Assembly (NCBI GenBank): GCA_951406725.2
Contig: OX597824.1
Location: forward strand, 82,832,001-82,896,000
Direction of reading: 5' to 3'
Length of the DNA stretch: 64,000 bases
DNA from: Octopus vulgaris
Lineage: Eukaryota
Below, one piece after another: positions 1 through 57,417 of this stretch. Position 1 is the first letter of the stretch, and the number at the start of each line of letters is the position of its first letter. Position numbers and translations under genes: made by a program. Under the pieces are notes generated by a model. That model saw only the letters and a program-made list of their open reading frames with translations, did no database searches and had not been told where the DNA came from.

Positions 1-554
1 TTGCTACACGATTTTACCTCACGGATGCTTTTTAGCAAACGCCATCTGATGCATGAGAGAGTTCGATGCAGCTGAAATACTTATATTTTTAATATTTTTA
101 TATTTTTAATTCGGTTTCTAAAATAATTTCCAATTTCAAATTCTAAAAAGCTTGTTTAAGTTTTTTATTAGCTAGATTGGACAAATTTGTTTGGAAATTT
201 GGAAGCTAATGTAATAATCAGATCCGACACATAGAAATTAATTCATTTTTAATTACTGCTAATTTAATAATTTAGACAGCTAAAAGAATCATGTGATTCA
301 AGCAGTGGAGTTAGGAAATATTAAACTGTTTTCAGGAAAGGGTTTAAATCGATGAATTTAAAATATATATTGAAAGTAAAATTTTTATAAAACTACAATA
401 CGTGGCCTTGTGGCATATATATATATATATATATATAGGGTTAGGGTTATCTATATAAACACAAGGCCGTATTTTAATACCACATTAAAGAACTGGAGTG
501 TCTCAATTAGCTTGGCTCGTGTATTTATGAATTTAAATGGATGAAAAACCAATC

Positions 555-609
<55 letters not shown>

Positions 610-845
610 ACCCGTTCAGATACTGAGGGTTTAATTTAAATTCAAGCTATCTACAAGTCCTTCACTTAGTGATGTTTCGTTCCAGGTCGAAAAATTAAAT
701 CTATATGTTATGTATATGATACAATATCTAGCTCATCAAAAGGCGTCAAGGTCGACGTAGCCACTCATCCTTCCGGAGCCAATACAATTAAAATACCAGT
801 CAATCCTGACCAAAAAAAAAAACTGGGCCTCTTACGATTTTGCTC

Positions 846-879
<34 letters not shown>

Positions 880-2426
880 CATGGTTGTGTGCCCGCGTCA
901 TTCATTCATTCATAAAGACTCGCTAGTTTGAAAGTCGATAAATTATAGTACAGCTCCTGCTCAGGTCACGAGATAGTTTTTAAACAAAGAATCTTTACAA
1001 ATAAAGAGGGGAAAACGAAGAATGCTGTGAAATTTACGAACGTTTTTGAAAGATCTAGGCAGGGAAATTATAGTCGGTGGTTATAATATTGTTCCCAACA
1101 AAAGAAAATTTTTTCATTTGTTTTAAAATTTAGCACAAGGCCATATTTTAATGCCAAAATCGCATTCAAATATGGGAAGAAAGAATAAGCTTGGATCGCG
1201 CCTTTGCAGAAATAATGGTGGGAAGAAAAAAAAAATCAATTTTTAATGAATGAAGTGAAGGAAAATCCCTGAGGAAAAGGGGCCTACGCACATTTTATAG
1301 TCGAAGGGGGAACAGCAAAATTAAAACATTCATGCCTTGCTCTGAAGGTTTTTAATTAGAAATTTAACAAAAAGCTGATAATGAATGGATCATTGAATTT
1401 GGTTAGAAATTTCAGCCAAGATTGAATCGAAACGTTTTAGGATTAAATCGCTTCCAGGGAAATGGTTAAAGGGAAATTAGGGGGATAAGGCCGAGGGGGA
1501 GAGGTAAGACAGGGGACTAGTAATTTGAGTTCGAGAGTAGGGTTGTTCTTGTGTAACCCATGATCAGACCCGATCAAGAAAACCTAGGGTAAAAAAGAAT
1601 CCAGCCGTGACCAATCAGTCTTGTTCTGGTACGTTATCCATTATACAAGGATAAAAGGCCAAGCTGACCCGGACAAATTTGAACTCGGAGACGTGGTGTA
1701 TTTTGTCCAACCATCTGAGGGAGATTTGGGTTGCTGTTTCATGAAGGCCACTGAACATTTAGAGGTGTCGTCAGCTCGGATCAAGTGGCATTCCAGCCAT
1801 GACCAACTCGTCGTTTTTTTATTTGCCAAACGCAGTACATCTAAGACAACCTTATTCAATGTTCTGTCCTTTAACTCAGTAGAGTGCAAGCGATTTCAGG
1901 GAGGCTCGGTTATTATTTCTAGCAAATCGAGCGATGAAAAAAGGGAAAAGCGATTTAGGAACGGTTAAGGAGAGGAAGAAATCCAAGCCATTTCCTAAAA
2001 GAATGAAAGGAGAAATACCCGGCAGATAGAAGAAAAGGGATCGAGACATCTGGACGTAGCCAGAAGGGGGAAAATATATATATATTATTACGAGATATAT
2101 ATGTGAGATACAGACAACAAAGGAAAAAGAATGTTCGCTTTCACCTAGAGAGGAATTAGGAAGAAGAAGAGATAGGGAGTAAAAATAAGGTCGATACTTC
2201 TAAGGGAGGAATCGCCATTCCAGTCAGCATAGAAAGAGAAAGGGACAAAGAACAAGAAGGGTTTTCAACCGGCTAAATAGTCTGCAGCTGGTTTTAAGCT
2301 GAAGGAATACGATTCTACATCCAGGAAGGAGGGAAAGGCATCAATGAAAATAAATTATACTACAGATACACATACACATATATATATATATATATTCATA
2401 CATATACACATAAATATATTCATACA

Positions 2427-2462
<36 letters not shown>

Positions 2463-2720
2463 CACACACACACACACACACAAATGCATTGTTCTTTGTA
2501 ACCGGAGATATAAATTAAATCTGTAAATTGCATCTATCACATGATTTTAAATGAGATGTTAAGCCTGTTTAGAAGTGTGTGTGTGTGTGTGTAGACAGAC
2601 AGACAGACAGATAGATATTTATGTACGTGTATAAGGAAATATAGCAATCTTTCTTCAAATTACTATATATATATATACACATATTGTTCTGAATATACTA
2701 AAGTATATTTTCCTTTGTCT

Positions 2721-2779
<59 letters not shown>

Positions 2780-3045
2780 ATTATATATATCGTTTTAATT
2801 AAAGCCTTCTTGCTATCATCACGATATCCAAAATGTTGTTTTACTGATTCTATACAGACGGACTTTTCTACCATACACCCTGGGTAGAACAGAAAAAATG
2901 GGGAGAAAAAGAAGTGGACATATGTTCGGAACAAAAAAAAGGGAGGAGAAGCCCTTTTAATTCCATTCCCCATATGTGAGTAAAAGAAGCACCAATGTAA
3001 AAGTATGACTTCTTAAACTTAACATATAAGTGCCAAAACGCGCGC

Positions 3046-3078
<33 letters not shown>

Positions 3079-3083
3079 TGTGT

Positions 3084-3122
<39 letters not shown>

Positions 3123-3185
3123 ACCCGAATCTCTAGGTCCCTGGGTAATTTGGAACATTTCCAACCCAAAATATGTATTACATGG

Positions 3186-3224
<39 letters not shown>

Positions 3225-3225
3225 C

Positions 3226-3257
<32 letters not shown>

Positions 3258-3301
3258 ATACATATATATACATATATATATATACATACATATATATATA
3301 C

Positions 3302-3334
<33 letters not shown>

Positions 3335-3355
3335 CATATATAACATATATATATA

Positions 3356-3421
<66 letters not shown>

Positions 3422-3450
3422 CATACACATATATATACATATATACATAT

Positions 3451-3485
<35 letters not shown>

Positions 3486-3872
3486 GTAAAGAATGGTGAA
3501 ATATTATAACATAGCAAAAAGCTGAATTAGATCATGTGAAGAATAATAGGAACAATGGTAAGGATGATGACGACGACGATGATGATGATGATGATGATGA
3601 TGATGATCTGCCCAGTCACACTAAGATATTATTAAGAGGGAGAGAATGAGAGAGACAACAGAAAATTAGAGAGAGGGTGAAGAAAGAGAGGTGACATGTG
3701 ACGGCGCCATTCTCTCTCTCTCTCTCTCTCTCTGCCAAAAAGACCAGATTCCTTCTTTTTTTGTAATGGAACCAATTTAGAACTTCGGTATTAATTTTTC
3801 CTCACACAGCTCTCTATTACGTTTGCTGTCTTCAGAAATACATCCAACTTGAAGAATTTTAGGGAAATAAAT

Positions 3873-3922
<50 letters not shown>

Positions 3923-3966
3923 CTTATATAATATACATACAATATACTGTATATTATGTAAATATG

Positions 3967-4021
<55 letters not shown>

Positions 4022-4172
4022 CATATACTGCGTATATTATGTATATTCATACTGTAGTGTGTGTGTGTGAATATATATATATATATATATATGAATATAC
4101 ATATATGATATATATATATATAGATGAATACATATATATATATGATATATATATATATAATATATATATATA

Positions 4173-4286
<114 letters not shown>

Positions 4287-4853
4287 CATATGTATGATGT
4301 GTGTATGTGTAATTTCTCCATACTAATTCTTCCAAATACATCCAATTTTCGCATTCAAAGAACAAATATATATATAAAAATATATATATATATCAGACTT
4401 CTTCGCTTCCGTCTTGGTGTGTGTGTGTGTGTGTGTGTGTGTAAATATATCATCTTTGTGTGTGTTATAATATATATCCATACAAAACATCCATCAAGGT
4501 ATTCCGAAATAATTGAAAATGCGTAATACTTTTTTCCCTTCGACAAAACAGGGTCACTTAAAGGTGACTACGAAAAATTCCATTTGTTGTAAGCTGCTCT
4601 GTGTGTGTCTTAACATTTTCCCCTACCGCAATAAAGAAAAGATCTGTCCTGATCCAAACAGACACATGACGAAAGACGTTCCAATCGTGACTATCACGTC
4701 ATTTTTTTTTTAATACTTCCTTTTTTTCTTCTTCTTTTTCTGGGTTTTTTTTCTGGACTATTGGACTACTTTTATCCAATGATTTCTTTTTTTTTATGTA
4801 TATACTAGGTTGTGATTTGGCTGTTATATAAGCCAGTGTGTATGTATATATAC

Positions 4854-4894
<41 letters not shown>

Positions 4895-5046
4895 TATATT
4901 TGCATGTATGTATATGTGTGTGCTTATGTGTTGTATATATATATATATTATATATATATATTTGTATGTGTGTGTATAGATGTATGTATAGGTGCGTGCT
5001 TATATGTGTTGTATATATATATGGATAATTATCAATTATTCAATGG

Positions 5047-5078
<32 letters not shown>

Positions 5079-5569
5079 ATATATATGTATTTATATATTG
5101 CTTGTATGTATCTGTGTGTAAATGCAGAATATGTGTGTAGAAATTTGGCTTCTTCCTTTGTGTGGAAGTTTAAGGAAAACATATGTATATATAAGAAAGA
5201 AGAAGTAGAAAAAAATGGCACAGAAGAGAGTTTTGATAATTTTTAGTCGTAGATATTCCGCTCTTCACAGAACAAATACTCATGAATCGAGCGACGCCAA
5301 GAGAAATCGGTAATTCCAACATTGAAAAGGGTTGTAAGAGACCTTTGTTCCCACGAAGAAAAGGGGATTGAAGAGAAGAAAAGTATAGATAAAACGTAAA
5401 ATTTGTAGGCAAAAAGAAAGACCCCGGTCAGAGCAAATTTCGACTAAAGCCATCTTCTTCCTTGTGATTCGAGTCTTGTGCTTTGCCAGCCCGGTAACAT
5501 CAAGGGAGGTAAGTAGGTTGCCGCTACTGATGAATTAACATCGTGAAGGATACATACACAGATATATAA

Positions 5570-5632
<63 letters not shown>

Positions 5633-5894
5633 TATATAGATATATATATATATATATAAGATATATATATATATAAGATATATATATATATAAGATATAT
5701 ATATATATATAAGATATAAGATATAAGATATATATATATATGTATGTGTGATATACACTGATACTATATATATATGGCTATCTCTCTGTCTCTCTATATA
5801 TATATGTATATACATACACTCATATGAAGACAACATACTCTAGTATATAATATACATATATATGTATTTAAAGTGAAAAGATCCACAAATATAT

Positions 5895-5972
<78 letters not shown>

Positions 5973-6087
5973 GTATATATGCGCATGCTCTGCATGCGTG
6001 GGTGGGCTGAAGACATTTCATAGCTTTTTACGCACATATATATATACATATGTAACAAAGTAGTGTGTGTGTGTGTTTATATATATA

Positions 6088-6119
<32 letters not shown>

Positions 6120-6723
6120 CGCTGAGCTATCAGCATGCGTGGGTGGGTTAAAGATGTATTTGGCGCCTGAGTGAGCTGGGGACGATGGCAGGCAGAGATA
6201 ATAGTAATAAAAAAGAAAATAAGAGAGGTTTGCTGGTAATGGTGTTTGGATATAGAGAATGTAAAGAATTTTGGTGGATCTGAGAACAAGAGCACATGAC
6301 TTGCGTATAATTAGGACACACACATTCACACACACACACATATATATACAGTATACATACTATATATGAGTAGTTTAGTCTCTGTTATCTGTAGCTTTCT
6401 GTAAGTCAAAATGCAGGGGCAGAATAATAACGGACCACAAGTTGACATTAGGGGGAGTTTTTCGATTAACGAAACAGGAATGTGGAATCTATCAGGGAAA
6501 TATGGAGAAAATATTTGCGAAACTGTAAAGGAATTTAGTGTCATTTCACGATTCTTAAAGTGGAAACGGAAGTTTTTATACACCCGGATTTGGCAAGAAA
6601 AATATGTCCCTCGGAGCTGTTAAAACAACTAACTAAAAATTTGATAAATTTTTTCCTGTTTCAAAACAATGCAAAATACAAAAATATTTATTTTTGAAAA
6701 TATAACACAATTTTAAAGAAATA

Positions 6724-6860
<137 letters not shown>

Positions 6861-7840
6861 CATGTATGCATTATGTCCATTCTGAAATTAAGCATAATTT
6901 GTTTCATCGTTTTTTTTGTCTTTGTTTTTCTTGACTAAATTAATAAATAGCTTCGAAGTCAGTTTTTCATAAAATGAGGGAATATTTTAGCTCTCTTTTC
7001 TATTATTCATTTATAAGATTTTAAAGTTTGATGTTAATATTTAAAAAAGAAAAGAAAGCCATATGGATGAAGATGCTGAAAATGGTATTCATTTATCATC
7101 TTCACGTCATTCCTTTCATACTGTTTTGTCAAACTTAATGGTTTTGATTTAATTCCTGTGATTTTAATTAAATGTTAATTTAACATGATTTAACGCGATT
7201 TTTCTTTCATTCAAACAGACTCCAATGCATTTAAATGTATATTTGCCAACGTATACTTAAGTGTATAAAATTGATGTATTCTATTGAGGACAAGGTCAAA
7301 TGAACAACTGGTATTTGGAGTTTTAAATTAAATGCTTTATATGTCTATATATACAAACTGATCGCGTTGAAAAACAAAATAGAAAAAAACGAACATGTTA
7401 TGCTTCAGTTATTTAGGAAGTTTAAAACGTATGGCCTAGATAAATGAAATATTTGTTCCGATTTATATATAAGTTTATTTGCGTGGGGGGTGGAAATTAA
7501 AATCGATATCTTTTTTTGTACATGGAGAATGAAATCCCAAATTTTATAGTACAAAAAAAAACTAACAGTGCAAACACCAATCGAAGAAGGAAAACATGTA
7601 AATAACATTCAAAGGATTAAGATTGAGATATTAAAAAAAAAAAAAAATTTCCTCTCGATATTAACAGAGAAGAAAAAAAATTTTTTTTCAATGAGAGATA
7701 TTAGGAAGAATTTGGAGAAAAAGTCTTGTGACACTTTCAAAGCAGGGGAGATAAATTAATATAAAAATAGAGACGTAGGTGGCGATAGTGTGAAATGAGC
7801 AGAGTTCAAGGTGACATAAATACAGAATTCTTATAACTTT

Positions 7841-7866
7841 TACAGTACAGCTGATGGCCTATGTAC

Positions 7867-7910
<44 letters not shown>

Positions 7911-7948
7911 GTCTACATCAACGTACACGGGCCATCAGCTGTACTGTA
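7841..7948. mobile_element. Small MITE-like inverted repeat (Tc1/mariner-type ends)
   Basis: TA|CAGTACAGCTGATGGCC ... GGCCATCAGCTGTACTG|TA: perfect 17-bp TIRs beginning CAGT, flanked by TA, around a (TA)n core. Confidence 0.55.
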
Positions 7949-8075
7949 TATATAATTTTTTAAAATCTTAGGGTAGCAAAAATATTTATAAAAAATTCTT
8001 TGCTACCAGTGGTCGAGTGAGAAGGAAAAATTTAGTCAATAGACTATATATTATTCATAGAAAAATACAGTGCAC

Positions 8076-8274
8076 ATTCAAACACATAAGAGATAGCCAA
8101 ATAATAGGATATCTGACTCACTAGAAATAGCAGTTAAAACTCCAAGCTACTATTAGTTTAATCACTTTTCCTGCATATCTGTACTTCAAATAAATATTAG
8201 TGGCTTCGAGTTTTAACTGCTCTTTCTAGTGAGTCAGATATCCTATTATTTGGTTATCTCTTATGTGTTTGAAT
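8076..8274. repeat. Long inverted repeat (about 80-bp arms, about 30-nt spacer)
   Basis: ATTCAAACACATAAGAGATAGCCAAATAATAGGATATCTGACTCACTAGAAATAGCAGTTAAAACTC is reverse-complemented at about 8208-8274 with two mismatches, and weaker pairing continues inward. Confidence 0.9.
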
Positions 8275-9862
8275 ATATATATATAGTATGTGTGTATGTA
8301 GTATACTGCACACATGTATTCTCAACACAGTCGCTTGATATGCTGGAAATGCAAACCACACACACTACTGCCCTCAAAGAATGGAAGAACACTTTGAATA
8401 ATTTAGTCCTAAAGACACTATGAAAACATAACACTATAAGGTGACTGCAGTTGAAAAACTTCTGACATCAGGATTCTCGATAGGGGTCACCTAGGGCTAA
8501 AGAGCAACACCCGATAATGTCGTTGAAAAAACTCAACACGATCGCTAGTCGTTTTAGAAATAGCAGCTAAACCACTCTTCACTGGTGTTCTAACTGCTTT
8601 GGAAAGCAATAGCCCAACAAACTTCTAAACACCGAAATCCTTTTGAATATAGTTCAGATGGATCAGAGCTGATCAGGAGCTAAACGACCAGACAACTACA
8701 TACATTAGATATATGCAGGCCACACCTCACATTTGGAGCCAACGATGAAGCCTCTACGGGGTCGTTCAAAATGCTAGAAATAACAGAAAAGTTATTCCGT
8801 GTAATCAAACCTAACACCCTTTCAAAATCGCTATACATTGTATAGCTTCTCGGGTTACAGTGTAAATGAATAAGAGACGAGATAGTCTTGGTTAGAATGC
8901 TCTTGTTATTAACAAAGGTGTGTGACATGGGCAAAATAACAAAGGCAATCACTACCCACTCGCACGCGTACATCACACATACACCACAAACCGCACATAC
9001 TAAAAATAAACCAGAAATAACACACATACACCTACTGATTTTACCTGACTGAAAATAACTGAAACGCAAATTAATTTTAGATCGATTAAACAATTGTACA
9101 AATGCACAAGTGCGCATACGAATATATGGAAATAGAGAGAGAGATACACAAAGGTTGGTTGAGATTTGGCAGATAAACGAGGAAGTACTCAATACATGTT
9201 CTATATTTGGTTTATTCAAACTAAGCATACATACTCGCACACAAACATTTAATGAAGGATTAAAAGCATGTATTTTAACACCTCGAATTTCGTTTATGGT
9301 AAATTGTATAATATAGAACAGTGTCTTAATTATCACAAAACTCGCTAATTTGGAGCGCAATTTGATAGACTATTTAAGAGAATTAACAATAGGGGTAACA
9401 AGCTAACAATATCATTCGTTAGGGGATCTGTTGAAGGGAGAGAGATGTCATGCGGTATTTGTTCCGATTTTTTACATTCTGAGTTCAAATTCCATGGAGG
9501 GCAACTTTGCTTTTCATCCCTCCGGGGTCGAAAAAATTAAATACCAGTCTGGTACTAGGGTTGAAGCAATCAACAAACACTTTCTCCTAAAATTTGTTGG
9601 CTTTGAGGATAAATTAGAAACATGTTAGGAACAGACGATGTAAGAAGGAAATTGCTCGCCCAATATTGTTAAGTACAAGCTGTCAATACCCCCTTAGCAT
9701 CATTATAGACTCGGGCTGAATAAACCAATGTACTGGGGCCCTATAGTGTCCATTAGCAGCAATCCACAGCATACATAGAATAAAATCGGGACCCTAGATC
9801 CGTGGGGTCCCTGGCCAGCCCTGTTAATAAGAGGTAAGAACTATGTAGCCCTGTATTATATT

Positions 9863-10093
9863 CATTTCGTTACTACCCACAAGGGGCTAAACACAGAGGG
9901 GATAAACAAGGACAGACAAACGGATTAAGTCGATTACATCGACCCCAGTGCGTAACTGGTACTTAATTTATCGACCCCGAAAGGATGAAAGGCAAAGTCG
10001 ACCTCGGCGGAATTTGAACCCAGAACGTAACGGCAGACGAAATACGGCTACGCATTTCGCCTGGCGTGCTAACGTTTCTGCCAGCTCGCCGCC
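9863..10093 (-). mobile_element. Full-length tRNA-derived SINE, family B (GGCGGCGAGCTGGCAGAA... head)
   Basis: Sense strand has A-box-like GAGCTGGCAGAA, B-box GGTTCAAATTCC, central GCCTTTCATCCTTTCGGGGTCGATAAATTAAGTACCAG block and tail GCCCCTTGTGGGTAGTAA. It is flanked by a direct repeat CTGTATTATATT (9851-9862 and 10094-10105), read as a TSD. Confidence 0.9.
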
Positions 10094-10496
10094 CTGTATT
10101 ATATTATTTAGATACAGAGTTCAAATAACGCCGAAGTCAAGCTTTTCTTCCATCCTTTCGGGGTCGATAAAAAAAAAAAAAGCATCACAGTTGTGCCCTG
10201 GATTTCGATGTATTCGATTCCCTCTACCCTCAAAATTGTTGCACTTGTGCCAAAATTAAAAAAGGATTATTAGATAGACTTTGTAAGTCTATCAATAATG
10301 TTGGTGACCCTACATAATTGCAAAACTTACATGAAAATTTATTTCAAGTACAGATATGCAGATAAGTGGTAAAACTAGGTTTTTCGTTTCGTTCTGCATA
10401 TATATATATATATATACGTTATTAAAAGCAGTAGAAAATCACAAAAACTGTCAGTTTTATGTTCCCATTTGTCGGGCAGGGTAGAATATATATATG

Positions 10497-10577
<81 letters not shown>

Positions 10578-10821
10578 GAATTAATAATAAAAGGGTAAAA
10601 TTAATCTAATTAATTAATCAATCAATCAATTAATAATTTTACCAATGATTCATTATTTTTCTCTTTGCCTACGTAAAAAAATAAAGTTACTGTCTGGGAG
10701 ATTCTTACGGTAGTAGAAAAGGAATTTTAACTCCTATTTCTAAATTCGGTAGCAGACTCCTAATTATAATTATGTTTATGATTATAGAATATTTGAGTAT
10801 ATATATATATATGTATGTATG

Positions 10822-10870
<49 letters not shown>

Positions 10871-10889
10871 ATATATGTATGTATGTATG

Positions 10890-10921
<32 letters not shown>

Positions 10922-12992
10922 TGTATGTATGTATGTATGTATGTATGTATGTATGTATGTATGTGTGCGTGTAATTATAATTACTATTTGTCACCAATGC
11001 TAACATTACTCCTTAGTAAGTTATGTGAGGGTTTGCGGTTGTTTACGAACTTGCCTTTATTTCTATTTTAGCAAAGGTGCGGACAAATGATGAGGTAAGT
11101 TTTACCGAATGCCTCCTTTGACCTCGATAAATGCACCTTGAGTTTTTTTTTTTTTATATATATATATTTCTTCCTGATCAAAGCGAGCATAATTTATTCC
11201 ATTCCATATGTCGTTACGCATTACATACATACATACACGTGAGAGCGACATAGACATCTGTGTGTGTATATACAAATATGTATCCGTGCCTCTGTGTGTG
11301 TGTGTGTTTATGGGTGCATAAGCTTGTATGTATGTATGTATGTAAAATAATAAATAAAGGTGCGCCAGCTCTTCGTGAGATTGCCAACTAATGTTGAACG
11401 CAATGACACTAGATCCAAACAAACGAATCGGACTTCAAAACATCCGGAGACTGACACCCAACACCGGTTGGTTGCTAACCACACAGCGAACGTTGTCAAA
11501 GATACCATGCACCAGTTTGTTACCCAAAGCTATGTTGCGTAAATAAATACCCTCAAATCACACCCTATCGTCTGAAAACATGACGAAGGCTACATTATTA
11601 AATGCTGATATTAATGATTTGATTTATTGCACGATAACATTTAATAATGTTCCTATAATATATATACAGGTGTTTTCGTATATAATCAACGTGCGATGTC
11701 TATAGGTATATGTTTGTACACACACGCACGTGAGCGCGCTCGAGTACATGCGTTCATGTTTTTTGTATCGCTGTGGAATTTAGGGCCCAGAATGGAAGAA
11801 CTCATTGGATACTGTACTCTTCGGTAGACTATGCCTAGGGAAAAAGAGGGTCATAGCTGAAACATCTTTGACCGCAAATCTGTTCAGTCAGGTCCGAATT
11901 AGGGCTAAGCAACAACAGCTAAATATTTTACAGGCCCCGAGGAGCCAGTAAAATGCAAAATTCACCCAGGCAGATATTGAACTCGGCATGTTAAATTATG
12001 GAAGTTAATAGCGCAAAAAGCATTTAGTCCAACGCGCTTCCGATTCTGCATTCAAAAAAAAAAAAAAAAAGACTCGCCCTGCTAGAAATAGCAGTTAATT
12101 CTCAATCAAATCACAAGTGACAGTCTCAGAAAATGGTCCCCAGTTCCTTGCACACGAATGGCGCCAAAATACAAAAATGAACGAGGCTAACAAGGGAGCC
12201 CCTTTCGTGATTGATCGACTAGAAATCGCAGTCAAATCGCTCTCAAATTGCACTCTACGGACTTCAGAAAAAGAAGGACACATGGATGTTCCGACTGACA
12301 CAAGTACTGAAGGAAAATAAAAAAATTAAAAATTAAAAAAAGGAAAGAAATCAAATAAATAAATACGTGGCATGGTTCTTCGGCTTCAAATGCTTTTAAA
12401 GGTTAAGTCTGTCTCCTCGACAAGAATCGACTTGGCGTTAAAGAACAAAAACAATAACACGCAATAATAATCGAAACACAGGTAAGAGAGAGAAGAGAGC
12501 GGTTTGGCTTGAAGTCCAGTGAAACGATTCTGATAATGAAACCCATACTACAAAGGTTTTATAAACTTTAAGTCACGTGCTTAGGTAATAAGTTTTAAAT
12601 AACCCTTCGTGTTTCCGCTACGTCACTGCTATTACAACTAAACTACAGGTTGCTTGTACATAAAATGAAAGTGTTTATTACTCGTATATGTAACGCCTGC
12701 GTGTGAAGATACATATACGTTCAGTCTAGCGAAGACTAAGAAGACGATACTTTTTAAAAACTTTTACGTTGTAACAATAAATGTGATAATCAGATTTATC
12801 GAACGATAAATTAATGTCAATTAATGTCATTTTTTTGTTTTTTGTATTTTGTATGTATATGCATTCATTCTTAGTGTTCGTGCACACACGAACGTGTAAT
12901 TTCTGCCTATCAAAAATTATACACACACACACAAACATATATATATATATATAACAATGATAAATCTCAGAGCGAGTTATATATGCATCACG

Positions 12993-13025
<33 letters not shown>

Positions 13026-13926
13026 AATCAAATCCATTTGATAGATTCACATGTCAAAATAATTGTGCGGTATGTTCCACAAATCCACATGTGAACTGCA
13101 AAACCAAGAGCACTGTATACCAATATATATATATATATATATGTACACGCGCACATATTATATATACACATGCACACTGTTAACAATATATAATCACGGA
13201 TCATGAATAAATAAATATTATACAAGGCTCATATTCTAATAAGCATTTAGTTTCTCGGGGCAAATTAGGAGCTAATACACGCGCGCAAAAATGAATAAAT
13301 AATTATAAAAAGCAACAGCGAAACGAAGTACCGCGCAGCGAAACGAAACGATACTAATTGACGATAAACATTTTAGAAAGCTCCCTGGCAATTGCTTCTC
13401 TTTCTCTCTCTACTTCTTTTACATTCGTGCTGGTTTATTTACAAAACAATATCACATGTTGAAGCAAGATTTTCGTTGTTTATTTTCTTCTTTCTATCTT
13501 ATTTTCATATTCTTATCGTTACTTTCTGGTTACGTTTTATCGTTTTGGGGTACTTTTTATCGTTAGTTTTGGGTTATTTTTTTATCGTTTACTGTCATCA
13601 TGTTCCTATCATTACGTTATTTTTTTTCTTCGTTTTTCAATATTTTATCGTTACTTTGTTTTGTTTTTCTTCTGTTTCTTTGCAAATAAATAACAACAAG
13701 CAAGCATATACATAGAAGGAAATGAGTTTGCGTAACATACATGCTTTGAAAAATGCGTTTGTGTAACAGTCATGCCTTGAAAACACAATTTTCTGCAAGA
13801 GAAGAATTTCGTGCGGATGGGTGAGGTGACATACATGGGAAAATAGTCTGTAGCTATATTAGCTGGCTTCATTTTTGACCCCTCTCTCTCTTCATTTGTT
13901 GTTTAGCATTAAGGACTTTGAAAGCA

Positions 13927-14384
13927 CTCCAGCCTATGCCGTGTTAAGGCACGGCACATTGGAAAGTTTTCCGAGTGGGCTCGCGGGTTTAGAGACCCAA
14001 GAACTCCAACCTATGCTGTGTTAAGGCACGGCTTACTGGGAAATTTTCAGAGTGGGCTCGCGGGTTTAGAGACCCAAGAACTCCAACTTATGCTGTGTTA
14101 AGGCACGGCTTGTTGGGAAGTTTTCCGAGTGGGCTGGCGGGTTTAGAGACCCAAGAACTCCAACCCATGCCGTGTTAAGGCACGGCTTATTGGGAAGTTT
14201 TCCGAGTGGGCTAGCGGGTTTAGAGACCCAAGAACTCCAACCCATGCCGTGTTAAGGCACGGCTTATTGGGGAAATTTTCCGAGTGGGCTCGCGGGTTTA
14301 GAGACCCAAGAACTCCAACCCATGCCGTGTTAAGGCACGGCTTATTGGGAAGTTTTCCGAGTGGGTTCGCAGTTTTAGAGACCT
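13927..14384. repeat. 77-bp GC-rich minisatellite, 6 copies
   Basis: Unit CTCCAACCCATGCCGTGTTAAGGCACGGCTTATTGGGAAGTTTTCCGAGTGGGCTCGCGGGTTTAGAGACCCAAGAA; starts at 13927, 14004, 14081, 14158, 14235, 14313. Confidence 0.95.
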
Positions 14385-15175
14385 AATTCTGATCTAAAGC
14401 TTGGGGTCTAAGGGCTCAGAGCATTGATTTGTCTGGTGGCGGGAGCTATATCTATAACTAATTACATTCGTTACTTAAAGACTGCAGGCTATGTGGCTTA
14501 AGAGAGATTTTAGTGGTTACATTTAGCAGGTCCTTCAAACACCTTTAAAACAAGGTGGTCTTGTAAAAGTCATGTCATTGTTTCATTATAACCGCATTGT
14601 TGTCGTGTGGCCCACTGTGACGTATATTTCTCATTCAACTAGGAACTGCTACACAGACACATGTCGCGTTATAATTATTACATGGTTCATGCTCTCACAA
14701 AAAAAACTTCGGGATTAGTAAAAAGCAGATTTTTACATGTATCATCATTGTTATTGTGTTGGTGATGGTTCATAGATTTCTATGTTGTTCGTTTTGTTAC
14801 TCTTCCTGGCAAAGGATTAAATCCAGTAATAGTCGACTGTGTGATACATCGTCGATTAAGAAGTTGGGAACGCGTTTTGCCATCCGTTTTTTGGGGTTTT
14901 TTTTCTCTCTTTAGAGAGAGAAATTTTGTTGTCATATTCACTGCGTTGTCATCAAGCAGCACTGACCATTTAGTTCAGCTTGTTTGCGTTCAAATCCCGC
15001 TGGGGTAAAGTTTGCCTTGCATTTATTTCATCCTCCTGAGGTCAGATAGAATCGAGTGTTCCGTCCCCAAATCCCTAGTTTTGTGTGTGCGTATGTGTGT
15101 GTCTCTGAGTGAGATTTTGGAACAATAGCATTCCTTAATTACGCTAACGAAGGCTTCAAGAACTTCTTCAGTCAA

Positions 15176-15248
<73 letters not shown>

Positions 15249-15929
15249 CACACACTACATATGCGCACATAACATTCGTTGTATCATTCAACGTATTTAG
15301 GGGGGTCTTTTTTTTTTTTTTTTTTTTAAATTTAAAACAGTTATACTCATTTTGTCTTTTTATTTTGTTTTTCCACGCTGAATGTAAGCCTCAACATCTC
15401 ATTTGTAAAATTAAAACCATGCAATCTTAGCAAAAAAAAAATTAAGCTTAGCCAATATTTTTCATTCATCCGACCCATATTTGATTTCTTCTTTCTTTCA
15501 ACTTCTTACTTTCAGTTTTTTTAAATCTATTTATTTATATATTTCAGTTTTTAACCTCTTAACATATTATGCCGTATATTTTCGTTCAGATATGTCTAGT
15601 AAATATATATTTGAACGAGAATATACGTTCACTATATACTTTGAGACATCTATCACTTATTTCTAACCAGAAATACTTCGTTTACGATGGCATTCCCGTT
15701 TTCTATGGTTAACCGATCCAAAATAACTTATGAACTTATTCTTCCTAATATACAGATTCAAAATAAACAATAAATAAAAGAAACATATATTTTTTGCATG
15801 GATATTGAAAAAAGATGTGTATGTTTTAAGAGGTTAAGTTTAATCAGAGATATAGGAAAAACAAGCGCGATCGAGATGGAATTAAAAGCGAACAGCGAAA
15901 GAAAGAGAAATAAAAGTTTTTCTTCCTAC

Positions 15930-17061
15930 CTGTTGAGCTGATGATTGCGCGGATGCTGGATTGGTTGTGTAAGTGACAGGCAGTTTGAATTCCAAACAAT
16001 GCGCCGGTTCTTCTAAACATGGGGTAGGTTTGTGTTCCGATAGTGCGCCGTAGTTCCGATCCCCAGCTACAAGACACCAAAATGTTCCCCGCCTGGCAAC
16101 AGTCGGGACTCATCCCGGGAGGTCCTTGGAAATGTTGCGGGAAATTGTTTCGGAAGTTGGCCATAAAATGATGGTCCATGCTCATGGGGAAACTGCTCGG
16201 ACTTCCGTAAGAAGAAGTAGAACCGTTGTTGTTGTTGTTGTTGTGGTTATTGTTGTTGTGGTGGTGATGATGATGGTGGTGGTTCATCGTGTTCAAATCG
16301 TTTGTTCTGTTTCTTCTGGCAACCGATCGAATCGGTATTGGTCGGCTGTGAGACACACCGTGTCGTTGCGAACTCGGAAATGCACTGTTCCCACTTACTC
16401 CGTCTTTGGAGAAGACATCGTCGTCGTCATCCTCATCGTCGTCGTCGGCGGCGCCTACCACTTCGTCTTCGTCGTCGACGTCATCGTTATTATCGCCGTC
16501 TTCATCGTCGTCGTCGTCCTTGTCCAAATCTCCATCGACGTCGTCGTCGTCGTCGACGTCGCCAACGACGACATCATCGTCGTCGTCGTCTTCGTCGTCG
16601 TTTTCGTCAAAGTCGTTCGAACTCCTCTCTCGCATCGAGTAATCGCTCATACTTTCTACACTACACAGACTGGTCGATATGACAGCTGGGCCACGGCGAC
16701 GACCACCGCCGCCGCCGCCGCCCACAGCACCGATAGCAGCAGTTGTATTATTTCCTATCGACAGAGCCTGGAACTGCTGTTGAAGATGATGATGGTGTTG
16801 CTCCTCCTGCTGCTGCTGTTGCTGCTGCTGTATGTGCTGCGGGAAGTAGAGAGGATGGGAGAGCTGTTGTTGTTGTTGCTGCTGCTGCTGCTGCTGCTGT
16901 TGCTGCTGGTTGTGGTAACGGTGGGGATAGTTCTGCGGACCTTCGAAGAGCTGGCGGCGGCAGACAGAGCGGCAATAGTGCTGCTGTTGGCGATATTGGT
17001 GCAAGTGGTACTGCTGCTGCTGCTGTTCTTGCTGATGTTCTTCGTCTCCCTTCTGCTGCTG

Positions 17062-17093
<32 letters not shown>

Positions 17094-17400
17094 GGTGGTG
17101 ATGGTGTTGAAGATGTTGGTCTGGTTCGAAACTGAACGTAAAACCAGGCGAAATATTAGAAGGGGAGTCGTCAGTAGCGTAGCTGCTGTCGAAAGATCCC
17201 ACCGAGGGCGTGCAAGGGGTCATACTGGACAAGTTCCGAATGGAATCGTCGTCGTCGTCGTCTTCGTCGTCGCCCCCGCCGTCTCCGAAGGGGCCAATTG
17301 TTGTGTCTTCGACGGCAACTTTTGTCTTGGGCTGGGTAGGTTTTTGGTTGGAGTTCAGTGAATCGTATAATTCTTCACTGATTGGAGCAGATTGCATCAT
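15930..17400 (-). CDS. First coding exon (490 codons + 1 nt, phase-1 donor) of an intrinsically disordered protein; candidate BIM/BMF-like BH3-only protein with an LC8-binding TQT motif; downstream exons not found in the window
   Basis: Only long GC/CpG-rich ORF with non-microsatellite peptide. It starts MMQSAPISEELY (ATG at 17400) and its informative sequence ends at a donor ACAG|GTAGGA (GT = 15929-15928), after which the ORF runs into AT-rich intron-like sequence. Motifs: DSSYAT/GFTFSF, CRRQLF, DDVF, SRPIPIR, CC, RRTIGTQT. Coding status is well supported; the family call is motif-based inference only (about 0.45). Confidence 0.8.
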
Positions 17401-17827
17401 AATTGAACCAAAAAGCAAAAAAAAAAAAAAAAAAATTTTTTTCACTGAATTCTTTAGTCCTTTTTAGTAAATATCAAGTGTTCTCAAACACACACACACA
17501 AAAAAAGGATTTATTTAAATCAAACGAAGCGAGACAAATACTGCAACAAGTTTTTTTTGTCTTTGTCTTTTCAAGATCCAAGAACCAATGTTCAATAATA
17601 ACATGAGAACTTTAATCTGATAATAATGGAATAGTGGTAAATCCTTTTTTTCTTTTCTTTTCTCTTCAATAAATTGTCAGTGAAAAAAAAAGGGGCAAAC
17701 AAAGTTATAACAAGTAAATAATAATAATAAGTATTTTTTAGTCTGTGTGCGTAATGTTGATAATGATGTAATTTCCCAACTGAATTCTTCACAATTCTTG
17801 TTTCCTATTCAGGGTCCACACTGTATT
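17401..17827 (-). other. 5' UTR portion of the coding exon, with 3' splice acceptor at 17827
   Basis: Minus strand reads ttttcttttcttttcatatttctttcag|AATACAG (long pyrimidine tract + CAG; AG = 17829-17828), 427 nt upstream of the ATG. This implies at least one non-coding exon further upstream. Confidence 0.6.
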
Positions 17828-17853
17828 CTGAAAGAAATATGAAAAGAAAAGAA

Positions 17854-18075: not shown

Positions 18076-19485
18076 TTTAGGAATAAGTTTGTTGTAACTG
18101 CTTTAAAAAAAAAAGCAAAACGAAATAAAAACCCACGAAAAGGACAGAAGGAGAGACAGAACAAAATCGCAAAACAAAGCATGTAATTTGCTCATATGTA
18201 TATATGCTGCGTATATATATATATGTGTGTGTATGTGTGTATGTGAGTGTGTGTATTAATACCACAGTGTGACCAGTGACTGAAAGTTCTAAAGTTGTAT
18301 ATATAGTATATTTTCATAAACATTGGTGAGATAAGAAAATGTAAACAAATTCTACGAGAAACGATTCTTGCTCTCTCTTTTTTTTTTTTCGTATCGATAA
18401 ACAGCAAAACGTGAACAGAGAATGCGAAAGTAAACTAAAAGATTTATTTACTAAGTTTTCGATATTTTTTTTCCTCGCTCTCTCTCTCTCTCTCTTTTCG
18501 CACACTTTTTTCCAGCCATCCCAAGAAATATTAAAATTCGTCACAAAATTTAACACAAATGCGTCTACACACACATATAAACTGGATTCATTTAAAATAT
18601 ACTAAAAAAAACAATTTCTTTCTGTTCGCCGATGTACATGATTCCCCATCTATACCCACGTCTGACTCTTTCACACAGCATGTGTGTGCTAGTTACATAG
18701 TTTAAATTTTAGCTTCTAAGACAAAATGAAACGTGAAAAGGGTTTATCTAATATTACGCTTAAAAAGTCGAAATTTTAAAGTAATACAAGTAACTTTTTT
18801 CTAGCAAAAAAAGTTTCAGATAAAGAAAAATTACTTGAAAAACATGTATCTATCGCTTAGTAACAACTATATTTTTTTAATTTAAAGCAAAAACTTTTTC
18901 ACGCGAAAAAGAATTACTTTAAAACAAAACATACGTGTAGAAAATATTTAACACGGTTTAACTTAGTAAGCGATAATATTTTTTTAAGATATAGTTTACA
19001 ACAAAAACGAAAAAAAAAACTACGCGTATATGATAAAATATAATTGTATTAATTAATACATGTTGGCGATAAAAAATATCTTTAACATGAGAAAACTTTT
19101 TTCATACGAAATATACAAAAAAAAAAACATTTTTTTTTTTTCATATATAAAACCTTTTACAAAAAAAGATTTTTCTATGTACCTTTATATCCTTGAATTT
19201 CTTTGGAATATATAACCAAAACGTCACTTTTTTTTCCCCCTTAAATTAAAAGCAAGTCCGCGCAACTTTCAAGAAACTTTCCTTTTAAATCCAGTTAGAG
19301 CGTGTGCAATAAATATAAATAAATAGTTGTTCAATTGTAAATGTTGTGATTATTTTTTCCTGTTAGTCGCTATAAATATGTAAGCATATATTGTTATTTC
19401 ACTTTTTATAAATATATAAATATAATTGTAGGTTTTTCTTTTTCTTTGTGTGTTTCTTTCACTTTGTAAAGATAATATAAAAATG

Positions 19486-54529: not shown

Positions 54530-55043
54530 ATGATAGATAGATAGATAGATGCATAGATAATCCATTTTAAAATAAATTGAAAAAGCTTACTGATGTTTCG
54601 ACAAAAAAGAATCAGTCGTTGACATTGTTGTTGTTGTATAGTAATAGTAGTAGTAGTGGTAGTAGTAGTAGTAATAACCTCAGAAGCAGCAACAGTAGTA
54701 GTAGTAGTAGTAGAATTAGTTGTCATAGTTGATTGTTGTTCCTTCTCTTGGGTCCGTCGTTAATAATTAACCAACAGTAATAAAACTCCACGTTTAAGGT
54801 ATGTGTGGTCTGTATAAATTTCCCTGGACTTGAAGATGTTAATAATAAAAATAATAATAATGATAACACACCATCATCATCATTATTTATTTATTTATTT
54901 AATTAATTTATTAATTAATTTATATATATTTATTTATAATTGTTATTTTTAAATAATCCGCAGGCGTACGTACGATTGTCCTTCCCTCGTAAACTCAAGA
55001 TAGGTATGTATGTATGTATATATGTATGTATGCATGTATGTAC

Positions 55044-55077
<34 letters not shown>

Positions 55078-56229
55078 GCAATGTAAATAATAAATTATAT
55101 ATATATACTCATTAGGGAGATTTAAAGTCTGTATACATTGTAAAAGACATCATGGTGGTGATGATAATATATATAGCAGTCGGATAAATATTATGGCTGT
55201 TGATGATGTTGATACTGATGTTGTTGTTGTTGATGGTCGTCGTCGTCGTGATGGTCGTGGTAGTAGTAGTAATAGTAGTAGTAATAATTATAGCAGTGGT
55301 GGCGGCGATGAGGGTAGTGGTGGTGATTGTGGTGGTGGTGCTTGTTTTGTTTGTTTTTTAAATATATCTCGTTTGTGATTTCGCTGTTGTTATTATAGTT
55401 ATTGTTGTTGTTGATATTGATGAAGTAGTTTCGGTTGTTGTTGTTGTTGTTATTGTTGATGAAGTTGTTGTAGTTAGTGTTGTTGTAGTTGTTGCTGTTG
55501 TTGTTGTAGTTGCTGTTGTTTTTGTTTTTGTTGTCAACCGAAGCACCTAACATGTTAAACACTTTTTCTGCTATTTTAAATTTTTCCTTTCGTTTTAAAC
55601 AACAAATAATTATATATAAATATATCCACAATATATATATAATAAGTATATACTTAACTCTGTGTATATATAATATTACACATACATAAATATATATTTA
55701 TATTATATATATATATATATATATTACCAAGTATATATGTATATAGATATATGTGTGATTCTTATATTCTTGCTGTTGATTTTCTCCTGGAGTTCTTCTA
55801 ATAAAATCAGTGTAAAGGTATGTCAAAGGTAATATAATTAAATCAACTGTTTTCAATTTCAATTCAAGGTAGAAATAAAATTTTCATTTTAGCAATAAAT
55901 TTGTCTTTGCAGTTTTGTAATGTTTGTATAAGGAAAATGGTTATAATTTTTTGATAATACGGTTCCTTTGTTGCTGTAGGTGTTGTTGTTGTTGTTTTTG
56001 CAAAGAAAAATATATATATATAAGCATCAGATGAAGTCGAACCAATGTGAAAATGAAAAATTAATCAGAAGAATCTGAAGAAGAAGAAGAAGAAAACTTT
56101 TTTTCTTTTTTTTTTTTTTTCCTGGTGTAATGAAGTGAAGTATAATGAATGAAAATAGATGATAAATTGCAATTCTTTGAAACTATTTATAGTTTCAAAA
56201 AAGAAAAAAAAGGCAAAAAAAAATTCTGC

Positions 56230-56460
56230 TAATTTTGTATTTTGATTTTCTTCTTCCAAACGAAGCAGGCTTCTACAAGAGTTTTGGAGAAAAAGCGAAG
56301 CGGTGCTTGATGCGATGTTGTCGCTTAGACTCAGAATGTAAACAATGGCGCGTGGTTCTCTAAATGGCTGTGCTATAAATTCTACCTCCCTCCGCATAAA
56401 AAAACCCCAGTTACCATCTTTTAAGCTGTTCTGCTAATCGCTTAGTACTCCCTACATCAA
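56230..56460 (-). promoter_or_regulatory. Candidate core promoter
   Basis: Unique, complex island between SSR tracts. Minus strand has TTTATAG (56379-56373) about 31-33 nt upstream of Inr-like GCCATTGT (A = 56346), overlapping a FoxO-type GTAAACAA (56338-56345). Direction is ambiguous because TATAAAT also reads on the plus strand. Confidence 0.35.
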
Positions 56461-56868
56461 CAACGACATCATCCATCTCCTCCTCCTCCTATGCCGCCAC
56501 CGCCGCCCTCTCCATCGCCTCCTCCACCTCCTTCATTTTCCTCATCCTCCCTTTTCTTCTCCTCCGCCTCCTCCCTCAAAACACGCCACACGTTCTGCAC
56601 TAGCGCCGCTACTACTACTGCTGCTAGTTTCACCACCACCACCACCACCACCACTACCACCACCACTACAACCACTGCTACTACTACTACAGGTTATTGC
56701 TGCTGCTGTTACTACTGCTGCTACTACTGCTACAACTACCACCGTCTCCACCACCTTCATCATCATCACCACCACCACCATCACCACAGCTACTAAGTAC
56801 CACGACGGCTACTACTACAACCAATACTACTATTACATGCTCCTCTACTACTACTACTACTACTTCAG

Positions 56869-56917
<49 letters not shown>

Positions 56918-56979
56918 AGCTACTACTACTACTACTACCTCTACTACAACTACTACTACTACAGCTACTACTACTACTT

Positions 56980-57028
<49 letters not shown>

Positions 57029-57417
57029 AGGTTACTGCTGCTGCTACTACTGCTGCTGCTTTTAACAGTCCAATTACAAGGAGCTCAACTACCACCACTA
57101 GTACTGCAACCACCGCCACCTCCACTACCACCAACTACAACTACTACTACTACTGCTTCCAGCTCCACTACTACTACTACTAACAACGCCACTGCTCATA
57201 CTAATACTACTACTACTACTAGCACAGCAACAGCTACTACTACTACTACTACTGTTATTACTACTATTGCTACTCCTTTCGCATGTCGTGTATTCATCCT
57301 TTTCATTTTTCGACCACCATCTTCTTTCTTCTCTCTCTCTCCCCGCATATATGCATATATATATATACATGCATATATGCCTATATATATATACATGCAT
57401 GTATATATATATACATA

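Follow-up and report, generated by a model that had tools for sequence, protein, structure and literature searches.

A probable BH3-only gene of Octopus vulgaris with BIM-like and BAD-like motifs and relatives across Bilateria

The gene and its exons

The window, a 64,000-nucleotide stretch of the Octopus vulgaris genome (G000:C11:82832001-82896000; genome size 2.8 Gb), holds on its minus strand the first of three coding exons of a gene whose product is 609 aa long. Coding exon 1 occupies window positions 17400-15930 (orthologues P0002-P0004). Its single open frame, 17400-15931, encodes aa 1-490, one further base brings the exon to its end at 15930, and the donor GTAGGA starts at 15929 (phase 1). 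Positions 15929-1 are the first 15.9 kb of intron 1, which measures 73,916 nt in all, and the remainder of the gene lies beyond the window. Exon 2 (215 nt, minus strand, G000:C11:82774013-82773799) is found about 74 kb downstream of exon 1, and a further intron of 26,922 nt separates it from exon 3 (minus strand, C11:82746876-82746733), which is single copy in the genome and encodes 47 aa that include SFPG and an amphipathic helix. Both introns are canonical GT-AG and their phases match, 1 and then 0.

Splicing is documented by transcript contigs, which were assembled from runs guessed to be RNA and give no level, strand or ends. The junction of exons 1 and 2 appears in contigs of all four runs when approached from exon 2 and of three of the four from the exon 1 side; that of exons 2 and 3 appears in three of four. 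A preliminary description of exon 1 as part of a BIM/BMF-like gene had predicted that mRNA crossing the donor at 15930 would lead to a BH3 motif in the next exons, and the contigs do join it to an exon 2 carrying IGLELRRISDEY. A six-frame scan of the window agreed with that description in finding no BH3 exon in 1-15929. Because no single contig spans the poly-Q stretch above 16772, aa 1-210 are linked to the BH3 through the open frame and NCBI models.

At its 5' end, coding exon 1 is preceded by a 5' UTR portion at 17827-17401 (minus strand; acceptor TTTCAG at 17828), in which one upstream ATG at 17604 (minus strand) opens a 29-codon uORF, a possible translational control. Judging from loose contig ends behind 17827 (runs X1 and X2), an upstream exon of the 5' UTR has its 3' end at 54620-54591 (minus strand; donor GTAAGC at 54590), and judging from those behind 17829 (runs X7 and X11), an alternative 5' UTR exon has its 3' end at 19214-19183 (minus strand; donor GTACAT at 19182). 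With these alternative exons ending at 54591 and 19183, the gene spans about 140 kb. Long trinucleotide-repeat tracts (55194-55697 and 56400-57300) closely precede the distal 5' UTR exon, and the low-complexity open frames within them are probably non-coding.

The 3' end is variable as well. Contigs of three of the four runs read through into intron 2, giving a tail VSRWNMH... that agrees with the X1 tail of O. bimaculoides, and the X2 tail of that species, EKHGINWKMLLFMI, known from the O. bimaculoides model only, is encoded by a small internal exon about 1 kb into O. vulgaris intron 2. Both alternative C-terminal tails (L014:8950-8991 and L003:1250-1506, intron 2) retain the BH3 and alter the tail. 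The protein tail contains no stretch of transmembrane strength.

Exon 1 carries a series of short motifs, which the preliminary description had placed in order within one exon. All are in one minus-strand frame, at or within nine bases of the positions given there; the coordinate 17190, offered for the first motif, is in fact the D of DSSY, and GSFDSSYATDDSP begins at 17199 (17199-17161). Within it, DSSYATDDSP (17190-17161) is the octopod variant of a family motif DSGYxTDxSP, a predicted beta-TrCP-type phosphodegron in which Gly has become Ser. GFTFSFEPD follows at 17145-17119, and FTF within GFTFSF (17142-17134) is a predicted FxF docking motif that is missing from the O. bimaculoides model. 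DDVF (16422-16411) closes an acidic tract and takes the form [DEN][VIAMC]F in the family, SRPIPI (16347-16330) is a conserved SxPIxI motif that had been overlooked, and PDCCQAG lies at 16107-16087. RRTIGTQTY (16050-16024; TQT at 16035-16027) is a predicted LC8-binding site, 385 aa from the DSSY-type degron. Its family consensus, RSVGTQTP, fits the preferences of LC8 for a large residue at -3, a small one at -2 and Pro at +2 (PMC3078936, PMC6607443). Octopod sites read TQTY/H, of which Tyr at +2 is less favourable; a hydrophobic residue at +2 is poorly accommodated by LC8, and many TQT peptides fail to bind it (PMC6607443).

Exon 2 lay outside the view of the preliminary description and is BAD-like. 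RDRAHSLP (aa 521-528; minus strand, C11:82773924-82773901) is a predicted 14-3-3 site, and the BH3 motif IGLELRRISDEY (aa 541-552; minus strand, C11:82773864-82773829) has the full pattern of hydrophobic positions h1-h4 with L-x3-[GAS]-D (I541, L545, I548, S549, D550 and Y552). S526 of the RxRxxSxP motif precedes the BH3 serine S549 by 23 aa. The BH3 sits on one exon, the second-to-last of the gene, as in the rule described for BH3-only proteins (PMC7022251). Two residues before the BH3 leucine O. vulgaris has Leu where other species have Gln; the genome and three runs of organism A concur in this Leu, and the run of organism B has a Gln codon.

The octopus copy departs from the family consensus at three sites, namely DSSY (the degron Gly being gone), TQTY, and RRLYS (S499) in place of RxRxxS at the upstream basophilic position, and because of these deviations BIM-type controls may be weaker in octopus than in bivalves. 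Among 5000 shuffles of the 609-aa protein the generic BH3 pattern arose in 0.6% and RxRxxSxP in 1.3%; TQT arose in 9.6% and so, taken alone, is weak evidence.

Over residues 395-490 the protein is 100% identical to that of Octopus sinensis, 96% to that of O. bimaculoides and 72% to that of Argonauta hians. The O. bimaculoides and Argonauta proteins extend beyond the donor into the same exon 2, with RDRAHSLP and IGQELRRISDEY. The O. sinensis model P0002 (XP_036354419.1), on a 17-kb contig, continues past the 15930 donor into intron sequence, so that the BH3 is lost. In NCBI the octopod orthologues go under misleading names (homeobox 13-like, mef2A-like, hypothetical).

Low-complexity sequence (poly-Q/H/D/N/G) makes up 51% of the O. 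vulgaris protein against a family median of 10%, and the octopod protein has become nearly twice as long through its long Q/H/D/N repeats. This composition, together with the meaningless database names, could suggest that the motifs are a chance cluster in a microsatellite-rich open frame, and unmasked exon 1, at -32.5 bits on a profile built from 39 relatives outside the cephalopods, indeed does no better than its shuffles, 473 of 500 of which score as high. Collapsing the runs brought no improvement, with 277 and 594 of 1000 shuffles as high on that profile. Once the low-complexity segments are removed, exon 1 scores 9.6 bits against the same 39-sequence profile and only 1 of 1000 shuffles is as high for each of two shuffle types. 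A less expanded, unnamed protein, P0025, which is probably from a cephalopod and retains DSGY, links exon 1 and the non-cephalopod profile (E 5e-15 and 3e-6). A chance cluster is refuted by the splice joins and by conservation, both among the octopod orthologues and across phyla, and we give it practically no weight. The gene is real and very probably encodes a BH3-only protein.

A family with a shared order of motifs

With the C-terminal 148 aa as query, one distant unnamed protein, P0007, was found (one of 26 candidates, E 0.037). A three-sequence profile, searched at E<=0.001, retrieved 84 representatives, and one made from 31 sequences had 26 matches among 7991 candidates scored, none of them a named vertebrate BH3-only protein; for this reason, kinship with BIM and BAD rests on short motifs. 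Members occur in the molluscs Haliotis, Babylonia, Lottia, Bradybaena, Mytilus, Crassostrea, Mizuhopecten, Solemya, Mya, Ruditapes, Mercenaria, Mactra, Dreissena, Potamilus and Sinanodonta. Outside the molluscs they were found in Lingula (brachiopod), Owenia (annelid), Tubulanus (nemertean) and Watersipora (bryozoan) and, among deuterostomes, in Ptychodera (hemichordate) and in Asterias and Apostichopus (echinoderms). Names were looked up for 20 matches (19 from the first search, one from the second) and for those in the second listing, and all named relatives are annotated as uncharacterized or hypothetical. Two unnamed, mostly arthropod ESM Atlas clusters (247 aa with 119 members; 246 aa with 61 members) rank at or nearly at the top for a scallop query, and the 247-aa cluster also ranks at or near the top for the octopus query, with scores of 0.84-0.88; the two may be arthropod members of the family.

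The BH3 pattern is present in 72 of 97 matches (73 with a slightly wider pattern), and 42 of the 72 are at least 270 aa long. The 25 matches dropped for want of the pattern are mostly 5' fragments, and 30 more fall below 270 aa. P0080 and P0091, from the 84 matches, look like noise and left the motif counts along with the sequences that have no BH3 pattern. The median length in the family is 330 aa, as against 609 aa in O. vulgaris, and the ends of fragments, read as read-through, suggest that the same two intron positions are used across the family. Heterodont clams have two divergent paralogues (P0059 and P0113 in Mya, P0088 and P0114 in Ruditapes, P0044 and P0060 in Dreissena), and one group of the Ruditapes type is without TQT and retains the degron and the BH3. 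A bivalve-type query turned up no second paralogue (one match, among limited candidates).

The motifs follow one order throughout the family: a DSGY degron-like motif, FxF, acidic-VF, SxPIxI, GTQTP, RxRxxS, PLPD, RxRxxSxP and BH3. In all 31 members scored, the degron precedes TQT, TQT precedes RxRxxS, and RxRxxS precedes the BH3. Counted upstream of the BH3 in the 42 full-length members and set against shuffle means, the degron type [DSE]SG[YC] is present in 39 (0.9), LPD[VIL] in 40 (1.4) and RxRxxSxP in 37 (1.1). Because the degron and the PLPD-RxRxxS-BH3 blocks were part of the first search profile, these counts are partly selected. FxF is found in 31 (11.7), acidic-VF in 33 (12.1) and SxPIxI in 25 (1.7). 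The TQT motif is the freer test, since it was misaligned in that profile. [TS]QT occurs in 36 of the 42 (6.2) and TQTP in 26 (0.5), and TQT is found in 27 of the 30 full-length members of the 84-match search, at least one of them by chance. This conservation of TQT, a predicted LC8-type site, is strong, and the family bears out the earlier proposal in its comparison of the degron and FxF with those of BIM, the O. vulgaris protein itself having DSSY. The other motifs on which that proposal relied fare differently: exact DDVF occurs in 5 of 42, and CC before TQT in 1 of 36 relatives, so that CC is octopod-specific and was rejected as a family feature.

In 67 of 73 members an RxRxx[ST] site precedes the BH3 serine by 19-27 aa, and 49 of these 67 have a second RxRxxS 16-40 aa farther upstream. 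The small position of the BH3 is Ser in 68 of 73, and LRRxSD, a basophilic kinase site within the helix, is present in 65 of 73. All four hydrophobic positions of the BH3 are conserved along with its Asp, as the search pattern largely dictates. The distance from degron to TQTP varies, from 15 aa (SSGY) in three echinoderm-type members to more than 100 aa in molluscs.

Outside the BH3 helix the protein is predicted to be disordered. The AlphaFold model of the O. bimaculoides orthologue has a mean pLDDT of 54, with 440 of 533 residues below 70 and a pTM of 0.31, and forms helices only at the poly-Q, the BH3 (489-520) and the tail, with no helical bundle; a scallop member has a mean pLDDT of 0.45. 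The Bcl-2 domain itself (PF00452) was matched neither by the octopod proteins nor by the 31 members. In the genome, five Bcl-2-family matches (L008-L012) were found, of which L008, a candidate partner exon, looks Bcl-xL-like by eye and L009 Mcl-1-like; the Bcl-xL-like protein maps to C9:36.587 Mb and the Mcl-1-like one to C2:74.943 Mb.

Origin and proposed mode of action

We propose that the window holds exon 1 of a spliced 609-aa gene with a conserved BH3 on exon 2, likely an apoptosis trigger of the BH3-only class, from a bilaterian family of ancient origin that shares its descent with vertebrate BIM and BAD; we put the probability of this reading at roughly 0.72. In such a protein, the BH3 helix would insert into the groove of pro-survival Bcl-2 proteins and set Bax/Bak free. 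Restraint could take two forms. In the fashion of BAD, survival kinases would phosphorylate the RxRxxS serines and recruit 14-3-3, and then phosphorylate the BH3 serine. In the fashion of BIM, an FxF-assisted DSG phosphodegron would drive turnover, and the TQT site would permit dimerisation or sequestration by LC8. In octopods, with DSSY and TQTY/H, the BIM-type controls may be weakened.

It is also conceivable that the protein is a true BH3-only protein that resembles BIM and BAD by convergence, its invertebrate family having gathered the motifs independently. Most BH3-only proteins are described as mutually unrelated, with BH3 motifs held to be convergent, the BH3 being a short linear motif that can arise de novo (PMC10107002), and BAD is tagged SINGLE among ohnologue families (PMC3411107). 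The absence of named vertebrate proteins from the 26 profile matches fits this account, as does the fact that no vertebrate counterpart could be shown for PLPD and SxPIxI. Against it stand the hemichordate and echinoderm members, with a compact SSGY-TQTP as in BIM and RxRxNSAP as in BAD, the joint retention of order and spacing by several motifs, and the position of a PLC-beta exon 0.66 Mb from the window. We consider convergence unlikely, and descent from a common ancestor with BIM and BAD is the reading we carry forward.

A more specific form of common descent is that vertebrate BIM, BAD, BMF and PUMA have their unduplicated pro-orthologue in this family. In other words, one ancestral bilaterian BH3-only gene with degron, ERK-docking, LC8, 14-3-3 and PKA switches would later have been parcelled out among four whole-genome-duplication copies; to this we give even odds. 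The genes for BIM, BAD, BMF and PUMA have in common a phase 1 and then a phase 0 intron, and older papers reportedly proposed kinship among the four. We take BCL2L11, BAD, BMF and BBC3 to be located on segments of human chromosomes 2, 11, 15 and 19 that belong to one paralogon. Paralogon 3 of Lamb 2021 (PMC8040251) has its four quads on these chromosomes, with the markers MERTK at 111.9 Mb (2), PLCB3 at 64.25 Mb (11), PLCB2 and PAK6 at 40.2 Mb (15) and EHD2 at 47.7 Mb (19); BCL2L11, BMF and BBC3 are absent from the part of the paralogon 3 listing covered here.

As synteny markers, seven families were picked that neighbour the four genes in human, and five could be located in the octopus genome. 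The PLC-beta PH exon near the window (C11:83555728-83555886, L023) was identified by PDB matches to cephalopod PLC-beta (3QR0/3QR1); other PLC-beta genes may have been missed. CCDC9 is also on C11, which makes up 3.6% of the genome, as are three of four InaF matches. An InaF-motif match lies 76 kb from CCDC9 at C11:32.89-32.97 Mb (L020), and owing to this closeness it is not independent of CCDC9; the human genome presumably has INAFM-CCDC9 pairs as well, which the closeness on C11 would echo. BUB1 fell on C9 and EHD on C8, not on C11, and PLC-beta_C and PP1_inhibitor had no match in the genome and are uninformative. The marker linkage on C11 is suggestive support for a single ancestor and not proof.

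The candidate itself was probably glimpsed before. According to an oyster paper of 2022, no BH3-only protein had as yet been identified in molluscs (PMC8917759), and a squid study named BNIP3 as a BH3-only protein and did not find Bid (PMC9389742). The Fig. 5 legend of Suraweera et al. 2022 (PMC8998228) already lists a candidate BH3-only protein of O. bimaculoides, along with candidates from Crassostrea virginica, C. gigas, Mizuhopecten, Lottia, Lingula, Capitella, Saccoglossus and echinoderms (two, of 350 and 373 aa), so that novelty is lower than the preliminary description implied. C. virginica, Mizuhopecten, Lottia and Lingula are common to that legend and to the family here, and the size class is the same; the candidates are probably the same family, and the O. 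bimaculoides entry the gene described here. The text of that study on these candidates compares the BH3 region and disorder only, and does not take up a degron, LC8 or 14-3-3 sites, a gene model or synteny. In the literature searched, which covered few subscription journals, we found no description of the composite architecture, of these BH3-only genes as ohnologues or of a single ancestor, and the gene model, the motif set and the case for a single ancestor appear to be new.

The outcome is a complete model of the gene and, for the stress sensor that has been missing from apoptosis in molluscs, annelids and echinoderms, a named and testable candidate. If the family is of the type ancestral to BIM, BAD, BMF and PUMA, control by survival kinases (AKT/14-3-3, the ERK/RSK degron and LC8) would be older than the split of protostomes and deuterostomes, and the vertebrate division of labour would have arisen by splitting the switches of one protein.

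Comparison with vertebrate BH3-only proteins

Searched against the PDB at E<=10, the family profile gave 29 matches, all of them BH3 peptides or foldamers of BAD, BIM or PUMA (best 9e-5). The top two are BAD, five PUMA peptides and one PUMA foldamer are included, and no BMF peptide is among the 29. Among the 31 members, Pfam matches at E<=1 number 22 for BAD, 18 for Bclx_interact, 8 for PUMA and 1 for BMF. The Lingula and Asterias members exceed the Bclx_interact cut-off. The Bcl-2_BAD cut-off is 28.2 bits and relatives reach 25.8-27.2, and the best of the 31, at E 1.1e-6, may exceed it. Pfam cut-offs are not reached by the octopod proteins (E 0.017-0.036), which leave Bcl-2_BAD unmatched. O. 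vulgaris exon 2 alone has no Pfam match and no relevant PDB match, exon 1 yields nothing useful in Pfam, and single octopod sequences give tag or chance matches only in the PDB. Those ESM Atlas neighbours that carry a family label belong to BH3-only clusters (BMF, BIM, PUMA, BIK) or to PXT1; all score below 0.9 and are to be read as leads only.

With BMF (EDKATQTL; PMC3078936) the family shares the TQT before the BH3. A BMF-type protein or a BIM/BMF hybrid, as the preliminary description had it, could further draw on the acidic-VF motif, on a minor tail KMLLFMI encoded in intron 2 and on the top Atlas clusters, which are part-annotated as BMF (16-23% of members; 92% in the sixth-ranked cluster). 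We regard it as very improbable in view of the octopod-specific CC, the rarity of exact DDVF, the single Pfam match and the absence of BMF from the PDB matches, and the BMF-like half of that proposal is not supported. PUMA likewise shares a weak Pfam match and peptides among the PDB matches.

The TQT site leads in another direction as well, since RSVGTQTP resembles the GLCCI1 site SSTRSIDTQTPSV (PMC6607443). With this resemblance and the kinase site inside the helix, the protein might be a non-apoptotic, phospho-regulated LC8/14-3-3 scaffold of the FAM117/GLCCI1 kind, its BH3-like helix serving another role. The FAM117 Pfam domain was matched by none of the 31 members and by none of the octopod proteins; the downstream exons, which had been named as a possible source of such a family, encode a BH3 instead. 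Its hydrophobic positions and Asp are conserved (within the constraint of the search pattern), and all 29 PDB matches are to BH3 peptides or foldamers. We find a scaffold of this kind improbable and continue to read the protein as BH3-only.

The resemblance to BIM is in the front of the protein. Human BIM has a degron at 90-SRSSSGYFSF-99 (PMC10317156) and the LC8 site APMSCDKSTQTPSP (PMC6607443), and in echinoderm-type members SSGY precedes TQTP by 15 aa in a similar arrangement. The family differs from BIM in that Bim_N (PF06773) is found in none of the 31 members and in none of the octopod proteins, the BH3 mostly has Ser instead of Gly, the octopod degron is DSSY, and degron and TQT are farther apart, by over 100 aa in molluscs and 385 aa in O. 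vulgaris.

The resemblance to BAD is in exon 2. BAD and the family have in common a BH3 that reads G-x-E-L-R-R-x-S-D-E-F/Y, its small position being Ser. An RxRxxSxP precedes it by about 20-25 aa and, in most relatives, another basophilic serine lies about 16-40 aa before that; BAD has the widest Pfam coverage of the family. BAD phosphoserines are numbered 112, 136 and 155, the last being a PKA site inside the BH3 (PMC6193418), and the spacing of the basophilic serines in the family agrees with these. The human BAD sites are IRSRHSSYP and FRGRSRSAPP (PMC3411107), and RxRxNSAP of the deuterostome members resembles RGRSRSAP. The family is far longer than BAD, with a DSGY-type degron and TQT in its first exon and a PLPD motif, and O. 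vulgaris has RRLYS at the upstream site. Judged by these motifs, the front of the protein, with its degron and LC8 site, resembles BIM, and exon 2, with its two basophilic serines and the serine in the BH3, resembles BAD; the character of the protein is, in its sequence, BIM-plus-BAD and not BIM-plus-BMF.
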